Shown here one piece after another: positions 4,431 to 43,600 of a stretch of 45,051 nucleotides of DNA. The translations under genes were made by a program, and so were the position numbers. Source of the stretch: Vectrevirus T145P2; the sequence record OZ035747.1, one strand, 5' to 3'. The stretch's first letter is position 1. Every line of letters begins with the position of its first letter. The notes beneath the pieces were generated by a model. That model made no database searches. It had not been told where the DNA came from and worked only from the letters and a program-made list of their open reading frames with translations.

Positions 4431-5870
4431 ATGGCTAATATTACCAAACCTGTCACAACTGGTATTATACATGAAGGAAGGCTGCTATCAGATTATCTAA
4501 AACAAGCATGGGATAACACCTTACACGCTGATAACTACTTTGTTAGTGTTAAAGACTTTGGCGCTAAGGGTGATGGCTCTGCTGATGATACTGCTGCATT
4601 CAAAGCTGCACTTGCTTCTGGTAAGAATGTATATATCCCTGTAGGTATTTATATAATTAGTGAGACTTTGTATTTTAAGAATCAGGTTATAAAAGGGGGC
4701 GGAATAGCACCTATTCCGAGTCTTGGTACAATCCTTGCAATCTCACACAGTGAGCCTGCATTGAAATATGATGTAAGTGCAGGTTACTCTATGGGTGGTT
4801 ATTTAGGTGGGTTCTTCATAGATTATGGAGAGAACAAACCAGATAACTATGCAGGCAGAAAAGGCATAGATCTAGGTGATGCCGACCAACAAGCATGGCC
4901 TTCTCAATTTATCATTGAGAACATCATTGTCCGTGGTGCATACTTTGGTTTGCATGATGAAACAGGAGCATTCCAATACTCAATGCGCAATGTGGTTGCT
5001 ATCAATTGCTGGGAGGGGTTCCGTAAGTTCACTGGAACTACAGTCCTTATGGATACATGCTATGCGCTTAATTGCTATCAAGCATATAGACTGGCTAATG
5101 TTTATAATATGACAATGAATAACTGCGCCATGGATGGATGTAATGATATCCAAGGTTTACAGGCATTTGATATTACAAACTGCAAAGGTCTTGTGATAAA
5201 TGGCATGTATAGTGAGAATTGTGAGATCCATCATAGCGGTAATGCTTCTATATTTATTCATGGAGATTCTACAGTAACAATCAACGGTTATACCTTACAC
5301 TCGCATAATGTCGTTGTTGATCCAGCATCTGGAAGTGAAGAAGCATACTTTCTTAGAGCGCACGACAGCTCTAGGGTCAATGTAGATGGAATCTTCTTCG
5401 GTGAGAACCTTAAATCTACTAGTATCTTCACCTACCCAATTATGGCCTCTGGTGAGTCTAGAATTAAGCTAGGAACTACAGCACTTAAGGCATGGGTCGG
5501 TGCTAAGGGTGGTGCATCTATGGCTGCTGTTGAAGATAGTCTCATTGAATATGACAATACCGTATTTAACCCATCACTTACTGTAGGTTGGTGCAGTAAT
5601 AATGGTGTTGTAGCTAAAGGGACACTAGTTGTAAACACAACATTAGAACCTAATGCAGATTTAAATGCAGGAACTATACAATTAGTTGGTGACTATAAAC
5701 CAAATAAAGGTGATGTTCTTACATATGGTTCTACTTTCGATGTTCAATCATGTGCTATTATTCTGAAGCCACAAGGTGATAATAGTTGTAATGTTTACAT
5801 TAAAAACCTAAGTGCAGGTAGTAGTGTTACACTTAACGGAATATTGCACGTACAGGCAATTCGTAGGTAA
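4431..5870 (+). CDS. tailspike 1: beta-helix polysaccharide depolymerase/lyase-like protein (possibly K5-type lyase)
   Basis: AGGAGG then ATG 4431; 479 aa; KDFGAKGDGSADDTAAFKAALASGKNVYIP start of pectate-lyase-like beta-helix; repeated N-x-C turns; lacks T7 gp17-type N-terminal domain. Confidence 0.75.
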   Translation: MANITKPVTTGIIHEGRLLSDYLKQAWDNTLHADNYFVSVKDFGAKGDGSADDTAAFKAALASGKNVYIPVGIYIISETLYFKNQVIKGGGIAPIPSLGTILAISHSEPALKYDVSAGYSMGGYLGGFFIDYGENKPDNYAGRKGIDLGDADQQAWPSQFIIENIIVRGAYFGLHDETGAFQYSMRNVVAINCWEGFRKFTGTTVLMDTCYALNCYQAYRLANVYNMTMNNCAMDGCNDIQGLQAFDITNCKGLVINGMYSENCEIHHSGNASIFIHGDSTVTINGYTLHSHNVVVDPASGSEEAYFLRAHDSSRVNVDGIFFGENLKSTSIFTYPIMASGESRIKLGTTALKAWVGAKGGASMAAVEDSLIEYDNTVFNPSLTVGWCSNNGVVAKGTLVVNTTLEPNADLNAGTIQLVGDYKPNKGDVLTYGSTFDVQSCAIILKPQGDNSCNVYIKNLSAGSSVTLNGILHVQAIRR

Positions 5871-5899: not shown

Positions 5900-5953
5900 G
5901 CGCAACTTTTCTTAAAGGTTATCATGATGGTAGCCTTTCAGAAAGGAGGTTAC

Positions 5954-8389
5954 ATGATTCAAAGACTAGGTTCTTCATTAGTTAAATTCAAGAGTAAAAT
6001 AGCAGGTGCAATCTGGCGTAACTTGGATGACAAGCTCACCGAGGTTGTATCGCTTAAAGATTTTGGAGCCAAAGGTGATGGTAAGACAAACGACCAAGAT
6101 GCAGTAAATGCAGCGATGGCTTCAGGTAAGAGAATTGACGGTGCTGGTGCTACTTACAAAGTATCATCTTTACCTGATATGGAGCGATTCTATAACACCC
6201 GCTTCGTATGGGAACGTTTAGCAGGTCAACCTCTTTACTATGTGAGTAAAGGTTTTATCAATGGTGAACTATATAAAATCACGGATAACCCTTATTACAA
6301 TGCTTGGCCTCAAGACAAAGCGTTTGTATATGAGAACGTGATATATGCACCTTACATGGGTAGTGACCGTCATGGTGTTAGTCGTCTGCATGTATCATGG
6401 GTTAAGTCTGGTGACGATGGTCAAACATGGTCTACTCCAGAGTGGTTAACTGATCTGCATCCAGATTACCCTACAGTGAACTATCATTGTATGAGCATGG
6501 GTGTATGTCGCAACCGTCTGTTTGCCATGATTGAAACACGTACTTTAGCCAATAACGCACTAACCAATTGTGCATTGTGGGATCGTCCTATGTCTCGTAG
6601 TCTGCACCTTACTGGTGGTATCACTAAGGCTGCAAATCAGCAATATGCAACAATACATGTACCAGATCACGGATTATTCGTGGGCGATTTTGTTAACTTC
6701 TCTAATTCTGCGGTAACAGGTGTATCAGGTGATATGACTGTTGCAACGGTAATAGATAAGGACAACTTCACGGTTCTTACACCTAACCAGCAGACTTCAG
6801 ATTTGAATAACGCTGGAAAGAGTTGGCACATGGGTACTTCTTTCCATAAGTCTCCATGGCGTAAGACAGATCTTGGTCTAATCCCTAGTGTCACAGAGGT
6901 GCATAGCTTTGCTACTATTGATAACAATGGCTTTGTTATGGGATATCATCAAGGTGATGTAGCTCCACGAGAAGTTGGTCTTTTCTACTTCCCTGATGCT
7001 TTCAATAGCCCATCTAATTATGTTCGTCGTCAGATACCATCTGAGTATGAACCAGATGCGTCAGAGCCATGCATCAAGTACTATGACGGTGTATTATACC
7101 TTATCACTCGTGGCACTCGTGGTGACAGACTTGGAAGCTCTTTGCATCGTAGTAGAGATATAGGTCAGACTTGGGAGTCACTGAGATTTCCACATAATGT
7201 TCATCATACTACCTTACCTTTTGCTAAAGTAGGAGATGACCTTATTATGTTTGGTTCAGAACGTGCAGAAAATGAATGGGAAGCAGGTGCACCAGATGAC
7301 CGTTACAGGGCATCTTATCCTCGTACCTTCTATGCACGATTGAATGTAAACAATTGGAATGCAGATGATATTGAATGGGTTAACATCACAGACCAAATCT
7401 ATCAAGGGGACATTGTGAACTCTAGTGTAGGTGTAGGTTCTGTTGTAGTTAAAGACAGCTACATTTACTATATCTTTGGTGGTGAAAATCATTTCAACCC
7501 AATGACTTATGGTGACAACAAAAATAAAGACCCATTTAAAGGTCATGGACACCCTACTGATATATACTGCTATAAGATGCAGATTGCAAATGACAATCGT
7601 GTATCTCGTAAGTTTACATATGGTGCAACTCCTGGTCAAGCTATACCTACTTTCATGGGTACTGATGGGGTACGAAATATCCCTGCACCTTTGTATTTCT
7701 CAGATAACATTGTTACAGAGGATACTAAAGTTGGACACTTAACAATTAAAGCAAGCACAAGTTCCAATATACGATCTGAAGCGCAGATGGAAGGTGAATA
7801 TGGCTTTATTGGCAAGTCTGTTCCAAAGGATAACCCAACTGGTCAACGTTTGATTATTTGTGGTGGAGAAGAGACTTCGTCCTCTTCAGGTGCACAGATA
7901 ACTTTGCACGGCTCTAATTCAAGTAATGCTAATCGTATCACTTATAACGGAAATGAGCACCTATTCCAAGGTGCACCAATCATGCCTGCTGTAGATAACC
8001 AGTTTGCTGCTGGTGGGCCTAGTAACCGATTCACTACCATCTACCTAGGTAGTGACCCTGTTACAACTTCAGATGCTGAACACAAGTACGGCATCTCTAG
8101 TATTAATACCAAGGTGTTAAAGGCTTGGGGTAGAGTTGGTTTTAAACAGTATGGTTTGAATAGTGAAGCAGAGAGGAATCTTGATAGCATACACTTCGGT
8201 GTCTTGGCTCAGGATATTGTAGCTGCTTTTGAAGCTGAAGGATTGGATGCCATTAAGTATGGAATTGTGTCCTTCGAAGAAGGTAGGTACGGTGTGAGAT
8301 ATAGTGAAGTTCTAATCCTAGAGGCTGCCTACACTCGCCATCGTCTTGATAAATTAGAGGAGATGTACGCCGCTAATAAAATCAGTTAA
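5954..8389 (+). CDS. tailspike 2: endo-N-acetylneuraminidase (endosialidase) with C-terminal intramolecular chaperone domain
   Basis: AAAGGAGG then ATG 5954; 811 aa; C-terminal SDAEHKYGISS...LDSIHFGVLAQD region resembles the self-cleaving chaperone domain of K1-phage endosialidases (from memory). Confidence 0.85.
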   Translation: MIQRLGSSLVKFKSKIAGAIWRNLDDKLTEVVSLKDFGAKGDGKTNDQDAVNAAMASGKRIDGAGATYKVSSLPDMERFYNTRFVWERLAGQPLYYVSKGFINGELYKITDNPYYNAWPQDKAFVYENVIYAPYMGSDRHGVSRLHVSWVKSGDDGQTWSTPEWLTDLHPDYPTVNYHCMSMGVCRNRLFAMIETRTLANNALTNCALWDRPMSRSLHLTGGITKAANQQYATIHVPDHGLFVGDFVNFSNSAVTGVSGDMTVATVIDKDNFTVLTPNQQTSDLNNAGKSWHMGTSFHKSPWRKTDLGLIPSVTEVHSFATIDNNGFVMGYHQGDVAPREVGLFYFPDAFNSPSNYVRRQIPSEYEPDASEPCIKYYDGVLYLITRGTRGDRLGSSLHRSRDIGQTWESLRFPHNVHHTTLPFAKVGDDLIMFGSERAENEWEAGAPDDRYRASYPRTFYARLNVNNWNADDIEWVNITDQIYQGDIVNSSVGVGSVVVKDSYIYYIFGGENHFNPMTYGDNKNKDPFKGHGHPTDIYCYKMQIANDNRVSRKFTYGATPGQAIPTFMGTDGVRNIPAPLYFSDNIVTEDTKVGHLTIKASTSSNIRSEAQMEGEYGFIGKSVPKDNPTGQRLIICGGEETSSSSGAQITLHGSNSSNANRITYNGNEHLFQGAPIMPAVDNQFAAGGPSNRFTTIYLGSDPVTTSDAEHKYGISSINTKVLKAWGRVGFKQYGLNSEAERNLDSIHFGVLAQDIVAAFEAEGLDAIKYGIVSFEEGRYGVRYSEVLILEAAYTRHRLDKLEEMYAANKIS

Positions 8390-8697: not shown

Positions 8698-9055
8698 CCA
8701 AAGTCAAAATTTTGATATAGGCGTGTGTGAGGTGTCTCGCCCTCGCCCTCGCCGGATTTCCCCCATATGGGGCCGCGCTGCGGTTGGCTTGGGAGTTGGG
8801 CTGGGCTGGTCCGTCTTCGACGGGTGGCCTAGGGCTTGCCGAGGTCTGCTCTTAGTGGCTGCACAAGGAGAACGCCTAGGAAGCGCTAGGGCACGCCTTA
8901 GTATTGGACAAGGTGATTGCCTTAGTGCAACCGCTTAGGGCTTACACAGGCCGTTTTAGGGCCATTCATGAGCGTTTGACAGGGTGGGCGTGGGTGGGCT
9001 ATCTGTTCGTTTCGCTCCACTACGTTACGCTACACTCACCGCGCTTGTGTATCCT

Positions 9056-9064
9056 TGGTATAAT
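9056..9064 (+). promoter_or_regulatory. candidate host sigma70 extended -10 element
   Basis: TGGTATAAT (TGnTATAAT) in the non-coding terminal region. Confidence 0.35.
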
Positions 9065-9406
9065 CCTGATGGATGGCTTAGGTTAGACTTAGTGGGCTAC
9101 CTTAGTTAAAGCCTTAGTGCTTAGCTTAGTATCAACTTAGTAGTGTACCTTAGTAAGTCTTAGTGTCTTCTCTTAGTGATTGCATAGCTAAAGCTATAAG
9201 ATGCAATTAGGTCGCGGTCGGTAGACCGCTAATAAGAAGTAATAGTAATAAGATGCAGTAGGAGGAACACCAGAAACCTAGCCAACCTAGTCTATCCTAG
9301 CTCTGTATCTATTGCTTTCCTTAGTCTCACATGTTAGACAACCTAGGTTTATCTTAGTAGTTGTGACATGTATCACATAAATAATCTATCTTAGTGCGAT
9401 TTAGTG

Positions 9407-11384: not shown

Positions 11385-11498
11385 ATGGAAAGGCAATATA
11401 ACTTCATATTTTCAGACGGTGTAACCCTGAAATGTTCCTTACGATTTGCGCAGATTCGTGAGGAAGTGCTAGGTACTACATACAAACTATTTAGCTGA
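11385..11498 (+). CDS. small early protein (37 aa)
   Basis: GAGGA then ATG 11385. Confidence 0.35.
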   Translation: MERQYNFIFSDGVTLKCSLRFAQIREEVLGTTYKLFS

Positions 11499-11512
11499 CA
11501 CTATAAGAGAAG
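11489..11512 (+). promoter_or_regulatory. variant phage RNAP promoter-like site
   Basis: ATTTAGCTGACACTATAAGAGAAG; SP6-like upstream half, altered initiation region. Confidence 0.4.
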
Positions 11513-12711: not shown

Positions 12712-15339
12712 ATGCAAGACCTACACGCTATTCAACTTCAACTTGAAGAAGAAATGTTTAACGGCGGTATCCGTCGCTTTGAAGCTGACCAACAACGCCA
12801 GATTGCATCCGGTAATGAATCAGACACGGCATGGAATCGACGCTTATTGTCCGAACTAATCGCACCTATGGCGGAAGGTATTCAGGCTTACAAGGAAGAA
12901 TACGAAGGCAAGAGAGGTCGTGCACCCCGTGCATTAGCTTTCATTAACTGCGTAGGAAACGAAGTGGCAGCATATATCACCATGAAAATCGTTATGGATA
13001 TGCTGAATACAGACGTTACCTTACAAGCTATCGCTATGAATGTAGCAGACCGCATCGAGGACCAAGTACGTTTTAGCAAGCTGGAAGGTCACGCAGCTAA
13101 GTATTTTGAGAAAGTGAAGAAGTCGCTTAAGGCTAGCAAGACTAAATCTTATCGTCATGCGCACAACGTAGCGGTAGTAGCTGAGAAATCTGTTGCTGAC
13201 CGTGACGCGGATTTCTCCCGTTGGGAGGCATGGCCTAAAGACACCTTGCTGCAAATCGGTATGACCTTGCTCGAAATATTGGAGAATAGTGTATTCTTCA
13301 ATGGTCAACCTGTCTTCCTTCGTACCTTGCGCACTAACGGCGGAAAGCATGGTGTTTACTATTTACAGACCAGTGAACATGTTGGCGAGTGGATAACTGC
13401 ATTTAAGGAACATGTAGCTCAGCTCAGCCCTGCCTATGCACCTTGCGTTATACCTCCCCGCCCTTGGGTATCACCTTTTAACGGTGGGTTTCATACTGAG
13501 AAAGTAGCAAGCCGTATTCGTCTGGTAAAAGGCAATCGTGAGCACGTCCGCAAGCTGACCAAAAAGCAAATGCCAGCCGTTTATAAGGCTGTTAACGCTT
13601 TGCAGGCAACTAAGTGGCAGGTTAATAAAGAGGTTTTACAGGTTGTGGAGGACGTTATACGTCTAGACCTCGGCTATGGTGTGCCTTCCTTTAAACCACT
13701 CATCGACCGTGAGAACAAGCCAGCTAATCCAGTGCCGTTAGAGTTCCAGCACCTGCGAGGCCGTGAACTTAAAGAGATGCTAACGCCGGAACAATGGCAA
13801 GCCTTCATCAACTGGAAAGGCGAATGTACCAAGCTGTATACCGCTGAAACTAAGCGCGGCAGCAAATCGGCGGCGACCGTCCGCATGGTTGGGCAGGCAC
13901 GTAAATACAGCCAGTTTGACGCCATCTACTTCGTGTATGCACTGGACAGCCGCAGCCGCGTCTACGCGCAATCTAGCACGCTCTCTCCGCAATCAAACGA
14001 CTTAGGCAAGGCATTGCTCCGTTTTACCGAAGGGCAGCGCCTCGATAGCGCTGAGGCGCTTAAATGGTTTTTGGTGAACGGGGCTAATAACTGGGGTTGG
14101 GATAAGAAGACTTTTGACGTGCGCACCGCTAACGTGCTGGATAGTGAATTTCAAGACATGTGCCGCGACATTGCAGCGGATCCGCTTACCTTCACTCAAT
14201 GGGTGAATGCCGACTCCCCTTACGGCTTCCTTGCTTGGTGCTTTGAATATGCGCGTTATCTGGATGCACTGGATGAAGGCACGCAAGACCAATTCATGAC
14301 GCACCTCCCCGTCCATCAAGATGGTAGTTGTTCTGGTATCCAGCACTACAGTGCTATGCTACGCGATGCAGTAGGTGCGAAAGCAGTAAACCTTAAGCCC
14401 TCTGATTCTCCTCAAGATATTTATGGTGCCGTTGCGCAGGTAGTAATTCAGAAGAATTATGCATACATGAATGCAGAGGATGCGGAAACCTTCACTTCTG
14501 GCAGCGTGACTTTAACAGGTGCGGAACTGCGTAGCATGGCTAGTGCGTGGGATATGATAGGAATCACTCGCGGCCTGACCAAAAAGCCCGTAATGACACT
14601 ACCTTACGGCAGCACACGTCTAACCTGCCGTGAGTCAGTGATTGATTATATCGTTGATTTGGAAGAAAAAGAGGCCCAACGGGCTATTGCGGAAGGGCGT
14701 ACCGCCAATCCTGTACATCCTTTTGATAATGACCGCAAAGACAGCCTGACACCTAGCGCAGCTTATAACTATATGACAGCTTTAATCTGGCCTTCTATTT
14801 CGGAAGTGGTTAAAGCTCCTATAGTGGCAATGAAAATGATTCGTCAGCTTGCACGTTTCGCAGCTAAAAGAAACGAAGGCTTAGAATATCCCTTACCAAC
14901 TGGCTTCATCTTGCAACAAAAGATAATGGCTACCGATATGCTCCGCGTATCCACTTGCTTGATGGGTGAAATCAAGATGAGTCTCCAGATTGAAACAGAT
15001 GTAGTTGATGAAACGGCAATGATGGGTGCGGCTGCTCCTAACTTCGTCCATGGTCACGATGCTAGCCACCTGATTCTGACTGTATGTGACCTAGTGGATA
15101 AAGGTATTACATCCATTGCAGTCATCCATGATTCTTTCGGTACTCATGCAGGACGTACCGCAGACCTGCGGGATAGCTTAAGGGAAGAAATGGTTAAGAT
15201 GTATCAAAACCATAATGCCCTGCAAAACCTGCTAGATGTGCACGAAGAGCGTTGGTTAGTAGACACCGGAATCCAAGTACCAGAGCAAGGAGAGTTTGAC
15301 CTTAACGAAATCTTAGTTTCAGACTATTGTTTCGCATAA
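12712..15339 (+). CDS. single-subunit DNA-directed RNA polymerase (T7 gp1-like)
   Basis: 875 aa; collinear with T7 RNAP including PFCFLAFCFEY-like [27 protein letters not shown] and IHDSFGTHA motifs. Confidence 0.97.
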
Positions 15340-15347
15340 TATTAATA

Positions 15348-15378
15348 GGCCATTCCTTAGGGAGTGGCCTTTTTCTTT
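15348..15378 (+). terminator. intrinsic terminator after the RNAP gene (candidate early terminator)
   Basis: GGCCATTCC-TTAG-GGAGTGGCC 9-bp stem followed by TTTTTCTTT. Confidence 0.65.
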
Positions 15379-15413
15379 ACCTACTACCTGTAACATTTCA
15401 TTAACATAAAAGT

Positions 15414-15429
15414 GTCTCACATGTGAGAC
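15414..15429. repeat. 16-bp palindrome GTCTCACATGTGAGAC, copy 1
   Basis: Perfect palindrome 3 nt upstream of promoter 15432. Confidence 0.8.
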
Positions 15430-15431
15430 TT

Positions 15432-15454
15432 ATTTACCGGACACTATAGGATAG
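15432..15454 (+). promoter_or_regulatory. phage RNAP promoter (CCGG subclass)
   Basis: ATTTACCGGACACTATAGGATAG. Confidence 0.7.
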
Positions 15455-15605
15455 CCGTCGGAGACGGGAAAGAAAGGGAAGATAAAGGATATAAAGGAAG
15501 TAATAGGTATTAAAGGTTATATAGGTTATCTAGGAATACCTAGGAATACCTATTACCTTCTGCCCTTCCTCTTATTACCACTTAGAGGAAAGGCAGACCT
15601 AGGTT

Positions 15606-15621
15606 GTCTCACATGTGAGAC
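15606..15621. repeat. 16-bp palindrome GTCTCACATGTGAGAC, copy 2
   Basis: Perfect palindrome, preceded by GGCAGACCTAGGTT also found at 8545. Confidence 0.8.
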
Positions 15622-15626
15622 TTCGT

Positions 15627-15649
15627 ATTTACCGGACAGTATAGATAAG
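15627..15649 (+). promoter_or_regulatory. phage RNAP promoter, variant core
   Basis: ATTTACCGGACAGTATAGATAAG. Confidence 0.55.
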
Positions 15650-15675
15650 ACTAACTCACTTTGGAGATTTTAACC

Positions 15676-15804
15676 ATGCGTAACTTTGAGAAGATGACCC
15701 GTAAAGCTAACCGTTTTGACATGGAAGAAGGGCAGACGAAAGGCAAGAAGCTGAATAAACCTGTCCGTGACCGTGCATCTAAACGCGCTGCGTGGGAGTT
15801 CTAA
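15676..15804 (+). CDS. small basic protein, T7 gp1.1-like (42 aa)
   Basis: GGAGA then ATG 15676; MRNFEKMTRKANR...KLNKPVRDRASKR matches my recollection of T7 gp1.1. Confidence 0.65.
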   Translation: MRNFEKMTRKANRFDMEEGQTKGKKLNKPVRDRASKRAAWEF

Positions 15805-15807
15805 GTT

Positions 15808-17796
15808 ATGGCTATTATTCAGAATGTACCGTGTCCCGCCTGTCAAAAGAATGGACATGATATTACTGGCAACCATCTTATGATATTTGAGGATGGCGCT
15901 GGTTACTGTAACCGTGGTCACTTCCATGATAACGGCAAGCCTTATTACCATAAGCCAGAGGGTGGCATCGAGATAACCGAATTACCTATTACTGGCAATA
16001 TCAAATATACACCTTCTCAGTTTAAAGAGATGGAGAAGGAAGGGAAGATTAGCGACCCTAAGCTACGCGCCATCGCACTTGGTGGTATGCGTATGAAAGA
16101 CCGTTGGGAGGTTATGAATGAGCAAGAAAGGGCAGACCAAGAAGCAGAGTGGAAACTTGATGTTGAATGGTTCCTCACGCTTAAGCGTAAGAATCTTGTT
16201 TCCCGACACATTCGCGGCGACATTTGCGCATTGTATGATGTACGTGTCGGACACGATGAAGATGGTAGAGTCTCACGGCATTACTATCCACGCTTCGAGA
16301 AAGGTGAGCTAGTAGGCGCCAAGTGTCGCACATTACCTAAAGACTTTAAGTTTGGTCATTTAGGTAAACTCTTTGGTATGCAAGATCTTTTCGGTATGAA
16401 TACTTTGTCTCACGTGTTAGACAAGGGAAGACGAAAGGATTGCTTGCTTATTGTGGGCGGCGAACTGGATGCACTAGCAGCACAGCAGATGCTCCTTGAT
16501 TCTGCCAAGGGTACTAAGTGGGAAGGCCAGCCTTACCATGTATGGTCTGTCAATAAAGGTGAGTCTTGCCTTGAAGAGATAGTGCAGAACCGTGAGCATA
16601 TCGCCCAATTCAAGAAGATTATATGGGGTTTTGATGGAGATGAGGTGGGGCAGAAGCAGAATCAGCAAGCGGCTCGCCTGTTTCCTGGCAAATCCTATAT
16701 CCTTGAATACCCTTCTGGTTGCAAAGATGCTAACAAGGCATTGATGGCTGGCAAGGCTAAAGAGTTTGTTGATGCTTGGTTTAATGCCAAGTCATCTGAT
16801 GAAGTCTTTGGTAGCCAGATTAAATCTATCGCATCTCAAAGGGATAAGCTCAAGGCTGCACGTCCAGAGCAAGGGTTATCATGGCCTTGGCCTAAGCTGA
16901 ACAAGGTAACGCTAGGTATTCGTAAGAACCAGCTTATCATTGTAGGTGCAGGCTCTGGTGTAGGTAAGACTGAGTTCCTCCGCGAAGTGGTTAAACATCT
17001 TATTGAAGAACACGGTGAATCTGTAGGCATCATTTCTACAGAAGACCCGATGGTCAAGGTGTCCCGTGCTTTTATCGGCAAGTGGATTGATAAGCGTATT
17101 GAGTTACCGCCAACCAACGACCCGAAAGAAGACGGATACCGTGAGGTGTTCGACTACACCGAGGAAGAAGCTAACGCTGCCATTGATTATGTGGCTGATA
17201 CAGGAAAGCTATTTGTGGCTGACCTAGAAGGCGACTATTCTATGGAGAAGGTAGAGCAAACTTGCCTAGAGTTTGAGGCTATGGGCATTTCTAATATCAT
17301 CATTGATAACTTAACGGGGATTAAATTAGATGAGCGTGCTTTTGGTGGGAAGGTTGGTGCACTTGATGAATGCGTCAAACGAATTGGTACTATCAAAGAC
17401 CGACATGCGGTTACGATTTTCCTTGTCTCTCACCTTACACGTCCTCCGGCAAACCGTACCCAACACGAAGAAGGTGGCGAAGTTATCCTTTCTGACTTCC
17501 GAGGCTCAGGCGCTATCGGATTCTGGGCATCTTACGCCTTGGGGATTGAGCGTAATACAAGAGCTGAAACGCTTGATGAAAGGACTACCACGTACATCTC
17601 TTGTGTCAAAGACCGCGACCAAGGTATCTACACAGGAACCAAAGTCATGCTCAAGGGTGACATTCAGACCGGGCGTTTGAGAGAACCACAAGCTAGAACA
17701 AGGTCGTTTGATACAGGCGAAGCAAGGCAACAAGAAGTACCGGATTTACCGGACACTATAGAAGAGACAACCTTTGACGATGAACAGGAGTTTTAA
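15808..17796 (+). CDS. DNA primase/helicase (T7 gp4-like)
   Basis: 662 aa; N-terminal Cys4 zinc motif CPACQKNGHD...YCNRGH; Walker A GAGSGVGKTEF; acidic C-terminus ending DDEQEF. Confidence 0.95.
   Translation: MAIIQNVPCPACQKNGHDITGNHLMIFEDGAGYCNRGHFHDNGKPYYHKPEGGIEITELPITGNIKYTPSQFKEMEKEGKISDPKLRAIALGGMRMKDRWEVMNEQERADQEAEWKLDVEWFLTLKRKNLVSRHIRGDICALYDVRVGHDEDGRVSRHYYPRFEKGELVGAKCRTLPKDFKFGHLGKLFGMQDLFGMNTLSHVLDKGRRKDCLLIVGGELDALAAQQMLLDSAKGTKWEGQPYHVWSVNKGESCLEEIVQNREHIAQFKKIIWGFDGDEVGQKQNQQAARLFPGKSYILEYPSGCKDANKALMAGKAKEFVDAWFNAKSSDEVFGSQIKSIASQRDKLKAARPEQGLSWPWPKLNKVTLGIRKNQLIIVGAGSGVGKTEFLREVVKHLIEEHGESVGIISTEDPMVKVSRAFIGKWIDKRIELPPTNDPKEDGYREVFDYTEEEANAAIDYVADTGKLFVADLEGDYSMEKVEQTCLEFEAMGISNIIIDNLTGIKLDERAFGGKVGALDECVKRIGTIKDRHAVTIFLVSHLTRPPANRTQHEEGGEVILSDFRGSGAIGFWASYALGIERNTRAETLDERTTTYISCVKDRDQGIYTGTKVMLKGDIQTGRLREPQARTRSFDTGEARQQEVPDLPDTIEETTFDDEQEF
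17744..17766 (+). promoter_or_regulatory. phage RNAP promoter inside 3-prime end of the primase-helicase gene
   Basis: ATTTACCGGACACTATAGAAGAG. Confidence 0.7.
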
Positions 17797-17957
17797 TGGA
17801 AATTATTAAACCAGTATTGAATATCGGTATTGAGATCCTATTCATGCTTGTGATCGCAGATTATGCTGCACGATATGGATTCAAGAAAGCTGTGAAACTT
17901 ATCGTTGCATCTGGTTTTATTATGTCAATGTTCTTTATTGTAACACGCCTTATCTAG
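17796..17957 (+). CDS. small membrane protein (53 aa, two hydrophobic segments)
   Basis: AGGAG then ATG 17796 overlapping helicase stop (TAATG). Confidence 0.5.
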   Translation: MEIIKPVLNIGIEILFMLVIADYAARYGFKKAVKLIVASGFIMSMFFIVTRLI

Positions 17958-17974
17958 TGTATTTATCAGGGCTT

Positions 17975-17990
17975 GTCTCACATGTGAGAC
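17975..17990. repeat. 16-bp palindrome GTCTCACATGTGAGAC, copy 3
   Basis: Embedded in GCTTGTCTCACATGTGAGACAGGC, which can form a ~12-bp stem. Confidence 0.8.
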
Positions 17991-18029
17991 AGGCTCTTAT
18001 TAAGTACATTAAATAACTGGAGGTTGATT

Positions 18030-18981: not shown

Positions 18982-19180
18982 ACATAGTCTTAGAATGTTC
19001 GATGGTCATGAAGACCTGCAAGCCAAGATTACTAACCAAGCCTTCCTGTTCGCACAGTTAACTATGGCTGAGGCCAAGAAGAATAGTCTCACTCGTGAAC
19101 AGGTTATCAAGGAGGCCACTTGGGAACCACACCAAGGTAAATATATGGGCCACAAATTAACTGTAACACGCAGTCGATAA
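18971..19180 (+). CDS. hypothetical protein (69 aa)
   Basis: ORF track; overlaps previous stop. Confidence 0.55.
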   Translation: MQNKHSLRMFDGHEDLQAKITNQAFLFAQLTMAEAKKNSLTREQVIKEATWEPHQGKYMGHKLTVTRSR

Positions 19181-19238
19181 GTCAAGGGTTGTCCAACGTG
19201 TTGGACAGCCTTTCATCATATTGATTGGGAGGTATTAA

Positions 19239-22206: not shown

Positions 22207-22228
22207 ATTTACTGGACACTATAGAAGG
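22207..22228 (+). promoter_or_regulatory. phage RNAP promoter
   Basis: ATTTACTGGACACTATAGAAGG followed by AT-rich TAGGT-repeat leader. Confidence 0.85.
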
Positions 22229-22293
22229 AAATCCTAGGTAATCTAGGTTTATAAGGTAGTATAGGTAATTAAGTAAATATAGGAGATATAAAT

Positions 22294-37610: not shown

Positions 37611-40558
37611 TGGCAATTGAGCGACAAGCAGTACAAGGTCTGCCACAAGTGCAGGCCACTTCTCCTAATGTCATGACCTTTGCACCTCAGCGAGTTGGAG
37701 GTGTGGAGGCTGGCGTAGCTTCTACCTCCGGTAGTCGATTTATCGAAGACCTTATTCGAGCAGCCAGTAGTGTAGCTGATGTAACCACTGGTATCCTTAA
37801 TCAAAAGATTGAGGAAGATAAGGTTGTTCAAATGGAACGGGCATATAACGGATTAATGCCTTCTGAGGATGCAACTCGTGGTGGCGCTCGTGCTAACATG
37901 CTTGTCAAAGCTCAACTGCTAGCTAATGATGAAGCAGCACGAATGAAAGACATGGCTACTCGTTTCCAAGGAACGGATGACGAGTGGACACAGCTTATGG
38001 TTGACTCTCGTAATGAGATGCAGAATAAGCTGTTCCAGCAATACCCTGAGTTGCAAGGTGACAAAGATACTATGCGTATGGTCACTAATGTCTTCCAAGA
38101 ACAGCAGCCTCAGATTTGGGCTACACGAACCCAGCATAAACTTGACCGTGAACAAGCAGACCGTGAGGATACCTTTGACGGGCGAGTGGCTTCTACTTGG
38201 GATTCTAATATTGACCCTGAAGCCTCTGGATATGCTTTACAGGAACGGATCCGCGAAGGTCTTACTCAAGGATTACTACCTGAACAGATGCACAAGAAGT
38301 TAGTCCAGCGAGCAATTTCACTTGCACAAGGCGGTGATGTTAGCATGGCTGAAGCCCTGAAGTATGTGAAGGACGATAAGGGTGTTTCTGTTTATGCTAA
38401 GAATCCACAGCTTATCACAGCCATCACTAGTGGTAATGCAGTTTGGGCTAGGAATAATGTAGCTGATGTAACTCGTATGTCTTTCGAAGTTAAAGAATCA
38501 TACCTTGCAGGCGATTTAACTGATGAAGAATTGTTGGAACGAGCACAGCACATTAATAATCTGACAGGTAACTCTGTCTTCTCTAACCCAGAACTAGAGG
38601 CACTGATGCGCCAACGAGCTAAGCAGAATGCAGAGCTAGGTGCAATGCAGGATATGCGCCGTGAGCTTTACTCCGACCGCCTGACTGGCTTCCAAGGTAA
38701 GACTGATAAAGAGAAGAAGGCTTACATTGATGTTATCAAACAAGATAGCCAACTTTATGCAGACCAGCAAATCAAACAACGTGGCTTGGACCCTTACAGT
38801 CAAGAGGCTGAAGCTATTCGTGGTGCAGTGGAAGTGCAGCGCCTACAATTCATGAACTCCAAAGGCTTAGTGGATGATACCTTTGAGTCTCGTATCAAAG
38901 CCATGGAATCTATGCTATCGCCTGAGCACTTTGCCAAGGGCGAACCACAAGAGTTGATGACTATTCGCCAGTTGTGGGAACAGTTGCCAGAAGAGAGCCG
39001 AGGTGTCTTTGGTGACACGGTGAATGGCTACATGGATAACTACAACACTGCACTACAAATGGGGGAGACACCTTTGCAGGCTGCAAGGTTTGCGCGTAAA
39101 GCACAGCAGAAATTCTCTCGTACTGAGAAGGAAACCAAGAAGTTCAACTCAGCTATTGGAGATGCACTGGATGAGGTATCTGGTGCTGGCTGGTTTGATG
39201 GTAAAACCGAAGTGTCAGACTTAGGTAAAGCTATTGCGGAAGAAGAGTTACGAGCTAAGGCCAATATGTTGTGGTCTAGTGGTATGCGTAACATGGATTC
39301 CATCAAGAAGGCTTTAATTACTTGGGGCAATAAACGCTACACTCAATCAGAGGATGCAAAGACTTCCGGTGGCTATTTCATTAAAGGTGATTACACTTCT
39401 GCATCTGATATGCTTATGTCAGTTGGGAAAGGCGTAAACCCTACCGATGTACCTCTGGCGCTTGGTAGGTATGTAGAAACACAGATGCCAGAATTGAAGA
39501 AGGAGCTTCAAGAGGGGGAAACTAAAGATGATATATACATTGATTACAATGAACAGAAAGGTACTTTCGTGATTCGTGCTGGTGCAGCAGGTCGCCCTCT
39601 TTCTGGGGTAATCCCTGTAACCTCTTTAGATACCACTTCACTACTAGATTCTGCCTACCAGAAGAAAGTAGAGGAACGAGATAAAGGCGAGTATGTTCAC
39701 CCGTATCGTACAGGTATTGGTGCACAAGAGCCTATGCCAGCTAAACCAACTGCCAAAGATATTGGTAAATTTGGACTAGCTAACTTCCTCATGTCTTCTG
39801 CTTTTGCTTCTGGTGAGAATCTGCCTTCTAACTTCGAGATTAACTATCGAGGTAATATGCAACAATTCTATGACAAGCTAGCTATGGATGAGAATAAAGA
39901 TAAAGTTGGCTTTAATAAGGCAACTGGAACCTTTACTCCATATAAAGACGCTCACGGTGAGTCTATCGGTTACGGTCATTTCTTAACGGAAGAAGAGAAG
40001 CGAAACGGGTATATTAAGATTGGCGATGAACTAGTTCCCTATCGAGGGTCTATGTCTCAGCTTACAGAGAGCAAGGCTCGCGCTCTTATGGAGCAAGATG
40101 CTAAGAAGCATGTGCCTCCTACTCGTGACTGGAAGATTCCGTTTGACCAGATGCATCCTGCACAGCAACGTGGCTTAATGGATTTAACCTACAATTTAGG
40201 TAAAGGTGGAATCCAGAACTCACCGCGTGCTCTTGCTGCATTCAAAGCTGGTAAGCTTACGGAGGGTTTTATCGAAATGCTGGGCACTGCATCAAGTGAA
40301 GGTAAGCGTATTCCTGGCCTACTGAAGCGACGCGCTGAGGCATACAATATGGCATCTGCTGGTGGTGTGCCTAAGATTACCGAAGTGGAGACTCGTGAAG
40401 ATGGCTCCATGTGGGTTAGGTTTGGTGGACCTATGCCAGCAGGTTCTGTCTCGGCATGGACTCATAAACGTATTGGCGCGGATGGCTGGTATCAGGTTTA
40501 TGAGGCTGCACCTACAAAGTTAGCTAAAGGTTCTAAGGTAGGTAAAGTTAAGTTGTAG
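37610..40558 (+). CDS. internal virion protein B with C-terminal lysozyme-like (GH24-type) domain
   Basis: 982 aa; HGESIGYGHF ... LMDLTYNLGKGG near 39900-40380 resembles phage lysozyme motifs. Confidence 0.85.
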   Translation: MAIERQAVQGLPQVQATSPNVMTFAPQRVGGVEAGVASTSGSRFIEDLIRAASSVADVTTGILNQKIEEDKVVQMERAYNGLMPSEDATRGGARANMLVKAQLLANDEAARMKDMATRFQGTDDEWTQLMVDSRNEMQNKLFQQYPELQGDKDTMRMVTNVFQEQQPQIWATRTQHKLDREQADREDTFDGRVASTWDSNIDPEASGYALQERIREGLTQGLLPEQMHKKLVQRAISLAQGGDVSMAEALKYVKDDKGVSVYAKNPQLITAITSGNAVWARNNVADVTRMSFEVKESYLAGDLTDEELLERAQHINNLTGNSVFSNPELEALMRQRAKQNAELGAMQDMRRELYSDRLTGFQGKTDKEKKAYIDVIKQDSQLYADQQIKQRGLDPYSQEAEAIRGAVEVQRLQFMNSKGLVDDTFESRIKAMESMLSPEHFAKGEPQELMTIRQLWEQLPEESRGVFGDTVNGYMDNYNTALQMGETPLQAARFARKAQQKFSRTEKETKKFNSAIGDALDEVSGAGWFDGKTEVSDLGKAIAEEELRAKANMLWSSGMRNMDSIKKALITWGNKRYTQSEDAKTSGGYFIKGDYTSASDMLMSVGKGVNPTDVPLALGRYVETQMPELKKELQEGETKDDIYIDYNEQKGTFVIRAGAAGRPLSGVIPVTSLDTTSLLDSAYQKKVEERDKGEYVHPYRTGIGAQEPMPAKPTAKDIGKFGLANFLMSSAFASGENLPSNFEINYRGNMQQFYDKLAMDENKDKVGFNKATGTFTPYKDAHGESIGYGHFLTEEEKRNGYIKIGDELVPYRGSMSQLTESKARALMEQDAKKHVPPTRDWKIPFDQMHPAQQRGLMDLTYNLGKGGIQNSPRALAAFKAGKLTEGFIEMLGTASSEGKRIPGLLKRRAEAYNMASAGGVPKITEVETREDGSMWVRFGGPMPAGSVSAWTHKRIGADGWYQVYEAAPTKLAKGSKVGKVKL

Positions 40559-40575
40559 TACCTAACTCAAGGCTT

Positions 40576-40591
40576 GTCTCACATGTGAGAC
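40576..40591. repeat. 16-bp palindrome GTCTCACATGTGAGAC, copy 5
   Basis: Same extended context GCTTGTCTCACATGTGAGACAGG as copy 3. Confidence 0.8.
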
Positions 40592-40622
40592 AGGTCTTTA
40601 TGATAGGCACTATGGAGGAATT

Positions 40623-43600
40623 ATGGAACAAGACATTAAGACGAATTGGGCTGGATATGTCCAGTCTACTCCTGAGCCGTTTTCTATTGAGGCGGCTCCG
40701 GTATCGGCTCCTACGATACGCCAGCGTAATGAGTTACAAGAGCAAGTTCTTGAAGCTAAAGCTGACGCTGATATTTTAGGTGCTGTAGGTGCTGCCTTCC
40801 AGAATGAGTGGTTGGCATTCGGAGGCAAGCGGTGGTATGACCGTGCCACTGCTGATTTCACACCTCAACCAGACTTTGAGATACAACCTGAGCAACGTGA
40901 AGCACTACGTTTCAAATATGGTACGGATATGATGCAGACAATCACTGAGGGTGTTCGTTCTGAGGATGAATTGAACTTCCGTATTCAGAATGCTGATGAA
41001 GACCTTGAGCGCAATAAGCGCATTGCTCAGGCTGGCTGGGTTGGCTCTGTGGCGACGATTGGCGCTGCTGTGCTTGACCCTGTGGGATGGGTTGCCTCTA
41101 TTCCAACCGGTGGTGCCGCTAAAGTTGGGCTCGTAGGCCGTGCTGTGCGTGGCGCTATCGCCGCTGGCGTGAGTAATGCCGCTATTGAATCCGTATTGGT
41201 CCAAGGTGACATGACTCGTGATTTGGATGACATTATGGTAGCACTAGGTTCCGGTATGGCGATGGGTGGCGTTATTGGCGCTGTAGCGCGTGGTAGGGCC
41301 ACTAAGCTCAGTGAGCAAGGGGATGACAGGGCTGCGAGCATTGTGCGCAGTGCAGACGCAGGGGACCGCTATGTGCGTGCTGTTGCTGATGATAGTATCG
41401 GTGCGATGCGTGTTAAGGGTGAAGAGGTACTCACGGAGGGTGCATTTGATGTCTCTAGCAAAGGTGAAGATTTGCTGAAAACCCTACAGCGGGAAGGTAA
41501 TGCAATTGATATGACCCCTCGCCGCTGGGCCGGAACTCTGTCTGCCCTTGGTACTGTCGTACATTCCTCTCAGGATGCAAGTGTACGCGGCCTTGGTGCT
41601 CGCCTGTTTGAGTCCCCCCAAGGCTTAGGTATGCAGAAGGCATCTGCTAGTCTCATGCAGAATACTAACTTGAACCGTCTGAAATCTGCTGATATGAACC
41701 GTTTCAATGACGGGTTTGACTTATGGCTCAAAGAAAATAATATCAATCCAGTTTCAGGCCATACTAACTCTCACTATGTGCAGCAATATAATGAGAAGGT
41801 ATGGGAAGCTGTACGCATCGGTATGGATGAGTCTACGCCTAAGTCTATCCGTATGGCAGCAGAGGGGCAGCAAGCTATGTATCGTGAAGCATTAGCATTA
41901 CGTCAACGCTCTGGTGAAGCTGGGTTTGAAAAGGTTAAAGCAGATGATAAGTACATGCCTGATATTTTTGACAGTATGAAGGCTCGTCGTCAATTCAGTA
42001 TGCACGATAAAGAGGACATCATTGAGTTATTCTCTCGTGCATACCAGAATGGTTCTCGTAAGGTTCCAAAGGAAGTGGCTGATGATATTGCACGAGCACA
42101 AGTAAACCGCGTTGCTGATGCCACCTTGACCGGACAGCTTAGCTTTGAAAAGGCTATGTCTGGTCAAACCAAAGCAGAATATGAAGCACTCATGCGCAAA
42201 GCAGGCTTTAGTGATGAAGAGATTGAAAAGATGGTAGAAGCTCTGGATAATAAAGAAACCAGAGATAATATCTCTAACCGAGCTAAGATGAGTTTAGGCT
42301 TAGATGTTACTCAAGAGTACAATGGTATTCGTATTCGTGACTTTATGAACACTAACGTGGAAGAGTTAACAGATAACTACATGAAGGAAGCGGCAGGTGG
42401 TGCTGCCTTGGCTCGTCAAGGTTTCTCTACCTATCAGGCTGCACTTAATGCAATTGATCTTGTAGAGCGAAATGCACGAAATGCAGCTAAAGATACAAAA
42501 GCACACGCACAATTTGAAGCGGAGTCGGCTAAGATCCGTCAATCAGAGCCTGATTACAAGAAGGCACAAGAGAAGATTGAAGAGTTAAAGAAGCGACTTA
42601 AATTGAAAGAGAAAGATGAAGCAGCAGGTCTGGCTATTGATGAAGAAATCCGTCAGATGCGAGAGGGGCTTCGCTTGATTATGGGTAAATCTATCGATTC
42701 AAACCCACAAGATTTGTCTACTAAAATGCTGCGTCGTGGGCGTGACATTACAGGCGTACTTCGCTTAGGTCAGATGGGCTTCGCACAGCTAGGTGAACTT
42801 GCTAACTTCATGGGTGAGTTTGGTATTGCTGCCACCACTATGGCTTTAGGTAAGCAATTCCGCTTCACCTCTAAGGCGTTGCGTAATGGCGATGGCTTCT
42901 TTCGAGATAAGAATTTAGCTGAGGTTGAGCGAATGGTAGGTTACATTGGTGAAGACAACTGGCTAACAACTAAGGGTGCGCGTCCAGATGAGTTTGGTGA
43001 TGTAACCACAGTGCGAGGTATGATGGCCCATTTTGACCAGTCCATGAACTCTATACGACGTGCTCAGACAAACCTATCCCTCTTCCGCATGGCACAGGGT
43101 TCTCTGGAGCGAATGACCAATAGGCAAATAGCTTTGTCTTTCATTGACCACCTTGAAGGCAAGAAGATTATTCCTCAGAAGAAACTGGAGGAACTTGGTC
43201 TTACTCAGGAGTTCATGACTAACCTACAGAAGCACTATGATGCTAACTCTAAAGGTTCTGGCTTGCTTGGCTTTGATACAATGCCTTATGACATGGGTGA
43301 AACTTTAGCTAATGCTATTCGTCGTAAGTCAGGTCTAATTATCCAACGTAACTTCATTGGTGATGAAGGTATCTGGATGAACAAAGCACTAGGTAAGACA
43401 TTTGCACAGCTTAAGTCGTTCTCTCTTGTATCTGGTGAGAAGCAATTTGGTCGAGGGATTCGCCACGATAAAATTGGTCTTGCTAAGAAGACAGCTTACG
43501 GTTTTGCTTTGGGTTCAATAGTGTATGCGGCAAAAGCCTATGTGAACTCTATTGGTCGAGAAGACCAAGATGAATATTTGGAAGAGAAGTTATCGCCTAA

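Follow-up and report, generated by a model that had tools for sequence, protein, structure and literature searches.

In the genome of Vectrevirus T145P2 (sequence record OZ035747.1), analysed as a single stretch of 45,051 nt (the window, whose first letter is position 1 of all coordinates given here), two tandem phage promoters, P1 and P2, lie between the gene for the phage RNA polymerase (RNAP) and a homologue of T7 gene 1.1. An untranslated block separates the promoters, and the original prediction had proposed the whole arrangement as the primary replication origin. From left to right, the locus contains the following features.

12712-15339, plus strand: gene for the phage single-subunit RNAP (875 amino acids), the last early gene; in the list of open reading frames (ORFs) and annotated as RNA polymerase in the K1E, K1-5 and SP6 records.
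15347-15379, plus strand: intrinsic terminator-like hairpin (15347-15370; 10-bp stem, 6 G-C pairs) with TTTTTCTTT, the end of the early unit; found by the terminator scan, annotated as a terminator in MK373773 and kept in 26 of 26 related loci.
15380-15413, plus strand: AT-rich spacer CCTACTACCTGTAACATTTCATTAACATAAAAGT, from the terminator to the first palindrome; conserved in the Vectrevirus, SP6 and Klebsiella relatives.
15414-15429: palindrome copy 1, GTCTCACATGTGAGAC, 2 bp upstream of the P1 -17 position; an upstream palindrome stands at P1 even in the most distant lineages.
15432-15449, plus strand: promoter P1, ATTTACCGGACACTATAG, from -17 to +1 (G at 15449), CCG subclass, 28.9 bits; conserved in all related loci.
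15450-15605, plus strand: untranslated inter-promoter block of ~155 nt, evident from the sequence.
15466-15510, plus strand: purine-rich tract, including the purine run GGGAAAGAAAGGGAAGATAAAGG at 15466-15488; composition scan.
15482-15552, plus strand: periodic array of seven (A/T)AGG(A/T) cores at spacings of 9, 10, 9, 9, 9 and 10 nt; motif scan.
15606-15621: palindrome copy 2, GTCTCACATGTGAGAC, 5 bp upstream of the P2 -17 position; the Vectrevirus, SP6 and Klebsiella groups have it, the most distant loci (L024-L029) do not.
15627-15644, plus strand: promoter P2, ATTTACCGGACAGTATAG, +1 = G at 15644, 22.3 bits; conserved in relatives.
15676-15804, plus strand: homologue of T7 gene 1.1, encoding a 42-amino-acid basic protein; BLASTP identity to T7 gp1.1 of 59% (24/41 residues, E = 1e-13); PHROG 2490, to which no function is assigned.
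15808-17796, plus strand: primase/helicase gene; ORF list and annotated relatives.

To judge from gene order and homology, this locus is the SP6/K1E-group counterpart of the T7 promoters phi1.1A and phi1.1B, and the conserved start of the middle (DNA-metabolism) transcription unit. In the T7 reference, gene 1 is followed by phi1.1A at 5848, phi1.1B at 5923 and gene 1.1 at 6007, and the P1 start site falls at 14.9% of its genome, compared with 14.6-15.0% for the T7 origin region. Because the order of RNAP gene, promoter pair and gene 1.1 is shared and homology accompanies it, the analogy with T7 rests on true positional and genetic homology. The elements named in the original prediction (the promoters at 15432 and 15627, the palindromes, the terminator, the purine run and the gp1.1-like gene) are all present, at or no more than 2 nt from the positions it gave, and the 16-bp palindrome that it described before each promoter is exact at 15414-15429 and 15606-15621.

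The promoter family has ~13 members in this genome, and the promoter core is matched 15 times against 0.49 expected by chance. In the 16-nt core, both P1 and P2 are exact matches to the family; their scores come from a leave-one-out matrix in which the family ranges from 20 to 36 bits. At -5, P2 has G where the consensus has C, a difference that is conserved, and in most lineages P2 deviates from the consensus. The two form the closest promoter pair of the genome, 195 bp apart, and palindrome and promoter together make up a unit that occurs as a direct repeat at a distance of 192-195 bp. Transcripts from P1 have an untranslated extra leader of 195 nt, up to the P2 start site, and the P2 leader to the gene 1.1 homologue spans 31 nt (15645-15675) and contains a GGAG ribosome site. 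It is strongly indicated that the hairpin behind the RNAP gene terminates early transcription, and that the gene 1.1 homologue and the primase/helicase gene are transcribed from P1 and P2. Part of the AGG array is the complement of TACCTACTACCT in the spacer that follows this hairpin, so that read-through transcripts could fold differently from those initiated at P1. A further observation concerns the promoters at 15434, 15629 and 17746, around the primase gene, which read ACCGGACA, while most others read ACTGGACA; the ACCGGACA promoters may be a subclass for replication genes.

We compared the region with 26 IMG/VR loci that carry relatives of the RNAP C-terminal segment (71-98% identity) and with the genomes of K1-5, SP6 and the Klebsiella phage K1-ULIP33. 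In all loci that extend through the region, the order of elements is the same, that is terminator hairpin, palindrome, P1, 5' hairpin, AGG/TAGGT array, CCT-rich tail, P2 and gene 1.1 homologue, with the second palindrome missing only in the most distant loci. The intergenic DNA is 97.5% identical to that of K1-5, versus 79-85% at the third codon positions of the flanking genes, and 70% identical to that of SP6, versus 48-61%. Non-coding identity above that of synonymous sites excludes chance or filler as an explanation, and this comparison indicates that the non-coding region is under purifying selection. Over the 1.2 kb around the region, identity is 99.5% with Escherichia phage ULINTec4 and one K1E isolate, and 92-98% with dozens of other Vectrevirus genomes (SP6 supergroup).

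The block as a whole is 60% AT in a genome of 55% AT. AT content rises to 72% over the 71 bp of the array and peaks at 75% in 60 bp, in the top 0.2% of genome windows; the predicted AT-rich segment is thus real, but moderate. The phase of the array is the same in K1-5, SP6 and K1-ULIP33. Its last two units form a perfect 10-bp tandem (CTAGGAATAC x2.3 at 15530-15552), a polymorphic duplication that adds one in-phase unit and is absent from K1E (AM084415) and K1-5. The direct repeat that had been described as two copies of TAGGAATACC therefore exists as this exact tandem, but it represents only the newest array unit. Upstream of it, positions 15458-15507 are 84% purine, the most purine-rich 50 nt in the genome. 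For the first 50-60 nt of the P1 transcript, the predicted RNA:DNA-versus-DNA:DNA energy is the second most favourable in the genome. The block contains no G-run/C-run or quadruplex motif.

Similar leaders had been proposed at 2658-2819 and 22207-22293, and both proved to be of the same kind, with slightly adjusted boundaries.

2660-2819 (array part 2676-2760), plus strand: promoter and AGG/TAGGT leader with a hairpin and a CCU-rich tail; motif and AT scans, with counterparts in K1-5 and K1-ULIP33.
22209-22293 (array part 22225-22293), plus strand: promoter and AGG-array leader with spacings of 10, 9, 9, 9 and 18 nt, 74-77% AT; motif and AT scans.

No other non-coding DNA in the genome is as AT-rich as that of these leaders (77% in 60 bp), and equivalents of both stand at homologous places in relatives. 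The array at 22209 continues directly into a genuine ribosome site at 22280-22293, which indicates an RNA role. A PHROGs comparison of the genes behind both leaders returned no informative family and no link to a single-strand-binding protein. By the T7 rule, the two leaders are as eligible to be origins as the P1 leader.

By analogy with T7, the locus quite possibly also serves as the primary origin, a reading that we hold tentatively; initiation would be primed by transcription, with P1 and the AT-rich array as the working parts. In T7, replication starts at phi1.1A/phi1.1B, the phiOR and phi6.5 promoters are secondary origins, and a T7 RNAP promoter is essential to every origin (PMC8373140). 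In the mechanism that we propose, P1 transcripts would enter the easily opened purine-rich block (15466-15552) and prime rightward DNA synthesis, and the displaced strand would permit loading of the adjacent primase/helicase. The locus would thereby be the primary origin, and the AGG-array leaders at 22209 and 2660 possible secondary ones. We counted the nearby downstream position of the primase/helicase gene in favour of this proposal. The AT-rich origin segment of T7 holds one gene 4 primase site. The SP6-type primase recognises 5'-GCA-3' (PMC5737085), and by eye one top-strand GCA is found at 15591-15593, a trinucleotide match that carries no statistical weight; the Vectrevirus and SP6 groups keep it, and the Klebsiella group lacks it.

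Several observations weigh against an origin at this locus. In T7 origins AT-rich DNA follows the promoters, and the 61-bp T7 segment after both of them (5931-5991) is 78.7% AT. Here, by contrast, the AT-rich DNA lies between the promoters, downstream of P1 (72% over 71 bp) and not downstream of P2 with its 31-nt leader, and it reaches 72-75% AT versus 79% in T7. The proposed resemblance to the T7 primary origin thus stands for position, tandem promoters, gene 1.1 homology and conserved layout, but not for the placement of the AT-rich part. The T7 origin also lacks an R-loop-favouring purine bias, and such a bias is therefore unusable as an origin signature; an R-loop role of the block is speculative. 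The P1 leader has features ordinary for mRNA, among them a 5' hairpin that resembles those of other promoters and that shows covariation, and the same leader type recurs at two other promoters. As hallmarks of an origin, the palindrome and the TAGGT repeats had to be given up, with ~nine palindrome sites per genome and the array in two other leaders. None of the annotated related records that we examined marks an origin at the region, and a passage in PMC4837284 credits Dobbins et al. 2004 with suggesting that the SP6 origin lies at gene 14 (DNA polymerase). No skew feature was found at gene 14 in SP6, and our literature search found no report that maps a replication origin of an SP6/K1E-like phage experimentally.

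The GC skew itself is compatible with an origin but not diagnostic. Skew is positive in every 1-kb bin, and the detrended minimum and the best two-segment breakpoint fall at 6.0-7.3 kb in 4 of 4 SP6-like genomes. With the non-coding ends trimmed, the breakpoint of both the window and K1-5 lies no more than 15 bp from P1 (block-permutation p = 0.02-0.03). Counting further against the origin, the breakpoint is not significant in SP6 (p = 0.39) or in K1-ULIP33, where it also lies elsewhere; the method misses its positive control, placing the T7 breakpoint at 9.5 kb (p = 0.87) and not at the known origin; and the breakpoint coincides with the boundary between host-RNAP and phage-RNAP (early and middle) transcription. 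The failed control and this coincidence are what deprive the skew of diagnostic value. GC skew as an origin locator was set aside, as it misplaced the T7 origin and was not significant in SP6 and K1-ULIP33.

As RNA, the block is predicted to fold into four hairpins (-54.1 kcal/mol, z = -3.0). The fourth is the palindrome hairpin, and the others are as follows.

15455-15467, plus strand: 5'-proximal hairpin CCGUC-GGA-GACGG; predicted by folding, with compensatory changes (G-C/A-U/U-A) at the same pair across 26 sequences.
15495-15561, plus strand: long imperfect fold-back of an AGG-array arm (15495-15511) with a CCU-rich arm (15545-15561); 17-nt inverted repeat, 88% complementary, with an equivalent in every lineage.
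15559-15597, plus strand: third hairpin, TCTGCCCTTCCTCT / AGAGGAAAGGCAGA; inverted repeat, 93% complementary, and folding.

These structures bear on an alternative that is also possible, if tentatively so, namely that the locus acts in transcription and at the RNA level only. P1 and P2 would then start the middle operon, the block would be a regulatory or stabilising 5' leader, and replication would begin elsewhere or at many promoters. The 5' hairpin might protect the transcript, the AGG/CCU fold-back might be cut by RNase III in the manner of T7 R1.1, and 30S subunits or a protein might attach to the AGG repeats, which are Shine-Dalgarno-like. In line with such a role, the 5' hairpin shows the compensatory changes listed above, and an equivalent three- or four-hairpin architecture is predicted in 26 of 26 lineage sequences (z from -1 to -5). 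Hairpins proximal to the 5' end also stand 3' of most other promoters in the genome, so the P1 leader resembles an mRNA leader. The AGG cores are better conserved than their pairing partners, and the array at 22209 enters a genuine ribosome site. The T7 inter-promoter segment is 52% AT, hence not AT-rich, and holds R1.1, the RNase III site between phi1.1A and phi1.1B. The different SP6 origin suggested in PMC4837284, in the passage referred to above, points the same way. The sense strand folds more stably than the antisense in 19 of 26 sequences, but the mean difference is small (2.4 kcal/mol). Against this alternative, moreover, a search of Rfam 15 returned no family (best score 20 bits versus gathering thresholds of 38-85), and there is almost no covariation beyond the 5' hairpin. 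Alignment-based consensus folding of the 26 sequences recovers only that hairpin and the palindrome, and it yields no covariation for the long fold-back, whose 15 of 17 paired positions and apical pairs come from a single-sequence prediction without covariation support. The repeats make the alignment register unreliable beyond the 5' hairpin. Furthermore, an RNA role leaves an origin function compatible, as the same T7 DNA does both; origin and RNA-level roles are not mutually exclusive.

The palindromes that precede P1 and P2 belong to a larger family. GTCTCACATGTGAGAC has 7 matches in the window with at most two mismatches, against 0.03 expected, and a relaxed scan of four genomes places it at ~nine syntenic sites in each.

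9324, 15414, 15606, 16407, 17975, 19191, 24090 and 40576: palindrome sites in the window; relaxed scan, with homologous sites in L004, L005 and L006.

The sites lie near the left end, before P1, before P2, in and after the primase gene, before the DNA polymerase gene, before another promoter, after the large internal-virion-protein gene and sometimes elsewhere. Copies within a lineage share one sequence, GTCTCACATGTGAGAC in Vectrevirus and GTCCAACRYGTTGGAC (GTCCAAC-RY-GTTGGAC) in the SP6 and Klebsiella groups; the exception is the Vectrevirus copy at 19191, which keeps the SP6-type sequence. The copies at 17975, 19191 and 40576 form the apex of conserved 24-25-bp two-segment hairpins, each of which contains an internal loop and G-U pairs and has a U-rich tail (spanning 17943-18022, 19159-19238 and 40544-40623; -28 to -32 kcal/mol), which in form resemble a terminator or a T7-type RNase III site. 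At P1 and P2 the stems are of 6-7 bp only, and a terminator scan accepts these two copies (15414 and 15606) only when its pattern is permissive (6-bp stem, 3 G-C pairs, 5 T in 8). A passage of PMC11347151 speaks of 'seven SP6 RNAP terminators', which it credits to SP6 genome papers, and the three large hairpins may be among these. SP6 t5, the terminator used in that work, is the capsid-gene terminator; it is not a palindrome but a different, stronger hairpin. On these grounds the palindromes are copies of a genome-wide hairpin element and not origin determinants, and most likely they act on transcripts that arrive from upstream, by weak termination, insulation or processing ahead of the promoters.

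In the primase/helicase gene, we observed an in-frame, degenerate copy at 16407-16422 that is conserved in four genomes; by eye, its left half follows the lineage switch in Vectrevirus (TCC AAC to TCT CAC, Asn to His) and its right half does not. An IMG/VR scan for the ancestral palindrome gave mostly single chance matches in unrelated contigs. Among the matches listed, the contigs with at least three copies (L037/L096 and L114) are known RNAP relatives, and L038, L092 and L094 have two copies each. A literature search on the palindrome sequence retrieved no relevant paper. The notion that its GTC...GAC ends are T7-type primase sites was rejected, because the SP6-type primase recognises 5'-GCA-3' and not GTC (PMC5737085).

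The same family invites an explanation at the level of DNA, which we regard as distinctly improbable: a dimeric protein of phage or host would bind the palindromes as operators and thereby occlude P1 and P2, the AGG array would be an iteron-like binding platform, and the two together would time middle transcription, replication or both. The palindromes at P1 and P2 do lie 2-5 bp from the -17 positions and three copies stand just upstream of promoters, but spacing to the promoter varies from 2 to 15 bp by site and lineage. Copies change together between lineages (GTCTCACATGTGAGAC versus GTCCAACRYGTTGGAC), and the primase-gene copy partly follows the switch with its Asn-to-His change, as judged by eye. 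Symmetry of the central 2 bp is, however, not required, many SP6 copies have a T:G asymmetry that can form a wobble pair only in sense RNA, and three copies cap long hairpins of RNA type that contain G-U pairs. That the array keeps its strict periodicity across genera would suit a protein platform, but a period of 9.3-9.5 bp is unlike the DNA helical repeat, and no candidate binding protein was identified. That the block is a non-functional, slippage-prone, low-complexity spacer between duplicated palindrome and promoter units is scarcely credible: the unit is indeed directly repeated and the 10-bp slippage duplication is polymorphic among close relatives, but the block is far more conserved than synonymous sites and occurs in every lineage examined, with the same element order and array phase.

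Returning to the reading of the locus as the T7-type start of the middle unit that quite possibly doubles as an origin, the region is the expected tandem-promoter locus, a reading that does not explain why AGG recurs every 9-10 nt or why the copies of the hairpin element evolve in concert. It is conceivable but unlikely that the AGG-array leaders and the co-evolving 16-nt hairpin element constitute an undescribed control system of SP6-like phages that couples the onset of middle transcription to the initiation of replication. The arrays would in that case be modules that form R-loops or primers, or cooperative platforms for a phage protein or 30S subunits, and a sequence-specific factor, whose specificity changed between Zindervirus and Vectrevirus, would recognise the hairpin element.

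Some observations concern the genome beyond the locus. All large ORFs lie on the plus strand. The physical left end of K1-5 aligns at ~8737, and since a K1-5 genome end thus falls inside the window (~8737-9320), the window is a circularly permuted whole genome. The stretch ~8737-9320 contains many CTTAGT(G) repeats, which recall the short-repeat arrays beside T7 terminal repeats. At 11491-11506, ahead of the last gene before the RNAP gene, lies a weak promoter-like site that ends in TATAA instead of TATAG and is kept in K1-5 (2022), SP6 (2112) and K1-ULIP33 (2587). In ULINTec4 (MZ997839.1), ~217 nt at 1869-2090, directly after the RNAP terminator, are nearly all T, with a 'hypothetical protein' annotated over them; we rejected these extra 217 bp as a third module of the locus, as the poly-T stretch looks like an assembly artefact.

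SP6/K1E-like phages are used in phage therapy against the K1 capsule and are the source of SP6 RNA polymerase. The equivalence with T7 phi1.1A/B shows engineers which non-coding DNA to spare, and ~15400-15680 is a short, defined candidate fragment for origin function. The AGG arrays and the palindrome family may reveal transcript processing or replication priming that is specific to the subfamily and unlike that of T7.

Among known systems, R-loop-primed origins, such as ColE1 with its RNA II and the mitochondrial light-strand promoter with its conserved sequence blocks and T7-like RNAP, offer an analogy only. They share with the locus a promoter followed by a purine-rich transcript, whose hybrid energy ranks second in the genome here, whereas the real T7 origin has no purine bias and the block has none of the G-run/C-run or quadruplex motifs. 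The T7 RNase III sites, R1.1 in particular, resemble the locus in that a structured RNA hairpin, here a predicted one, lies between tandem promoters, and in that similar hairpins are scattered in intergenic regions beside promoters. The three palindrome-capped 24-25-bp hairpins described above, with their two segments and internal loop, are a further point of resemblance. The putative sites here have no sequence similarity to those of T7, and their stems at P1 and P2 are of only 6-7 bp. The SP6 literature, as represented in a passage of PMC11347151, names RNAP terminators and not processing sites, and our literature search found no data on transcript ends of SP6-like phages.

The T7 secondary origins phiOR and phi6.5 find a parallel in the leaders at 22209-22293 and 2660-2819, where a phage promoter is likewise followed by AT-rich non-coding DNA; the leaders differ in carrying a periodic AGG array, which in one case enters a ribosome-binding site. 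Closest to the locus stands the T7 primary origin itself. Both follow directly on the RNAP gene at ~15% of the genome, and both combine two tandem rightward phage promoters, an AT-rich untranslated segment after a phage promoter and a homologous gene 1.1 downstream (59% identity). Apart from the position and degree of AT-richness weighed above, the locus differs from its T7 counterpart in the strong purine-richness of the block with an AGG core every 9-10 nt, and in the 16-bp palindrome ahead of each promoter. In addition, its early terminator stands before the promoters, whereas T7 TE comes after gene 1.3, and its primase/helicase gene follows immediately on the gene 1.1 homologue.

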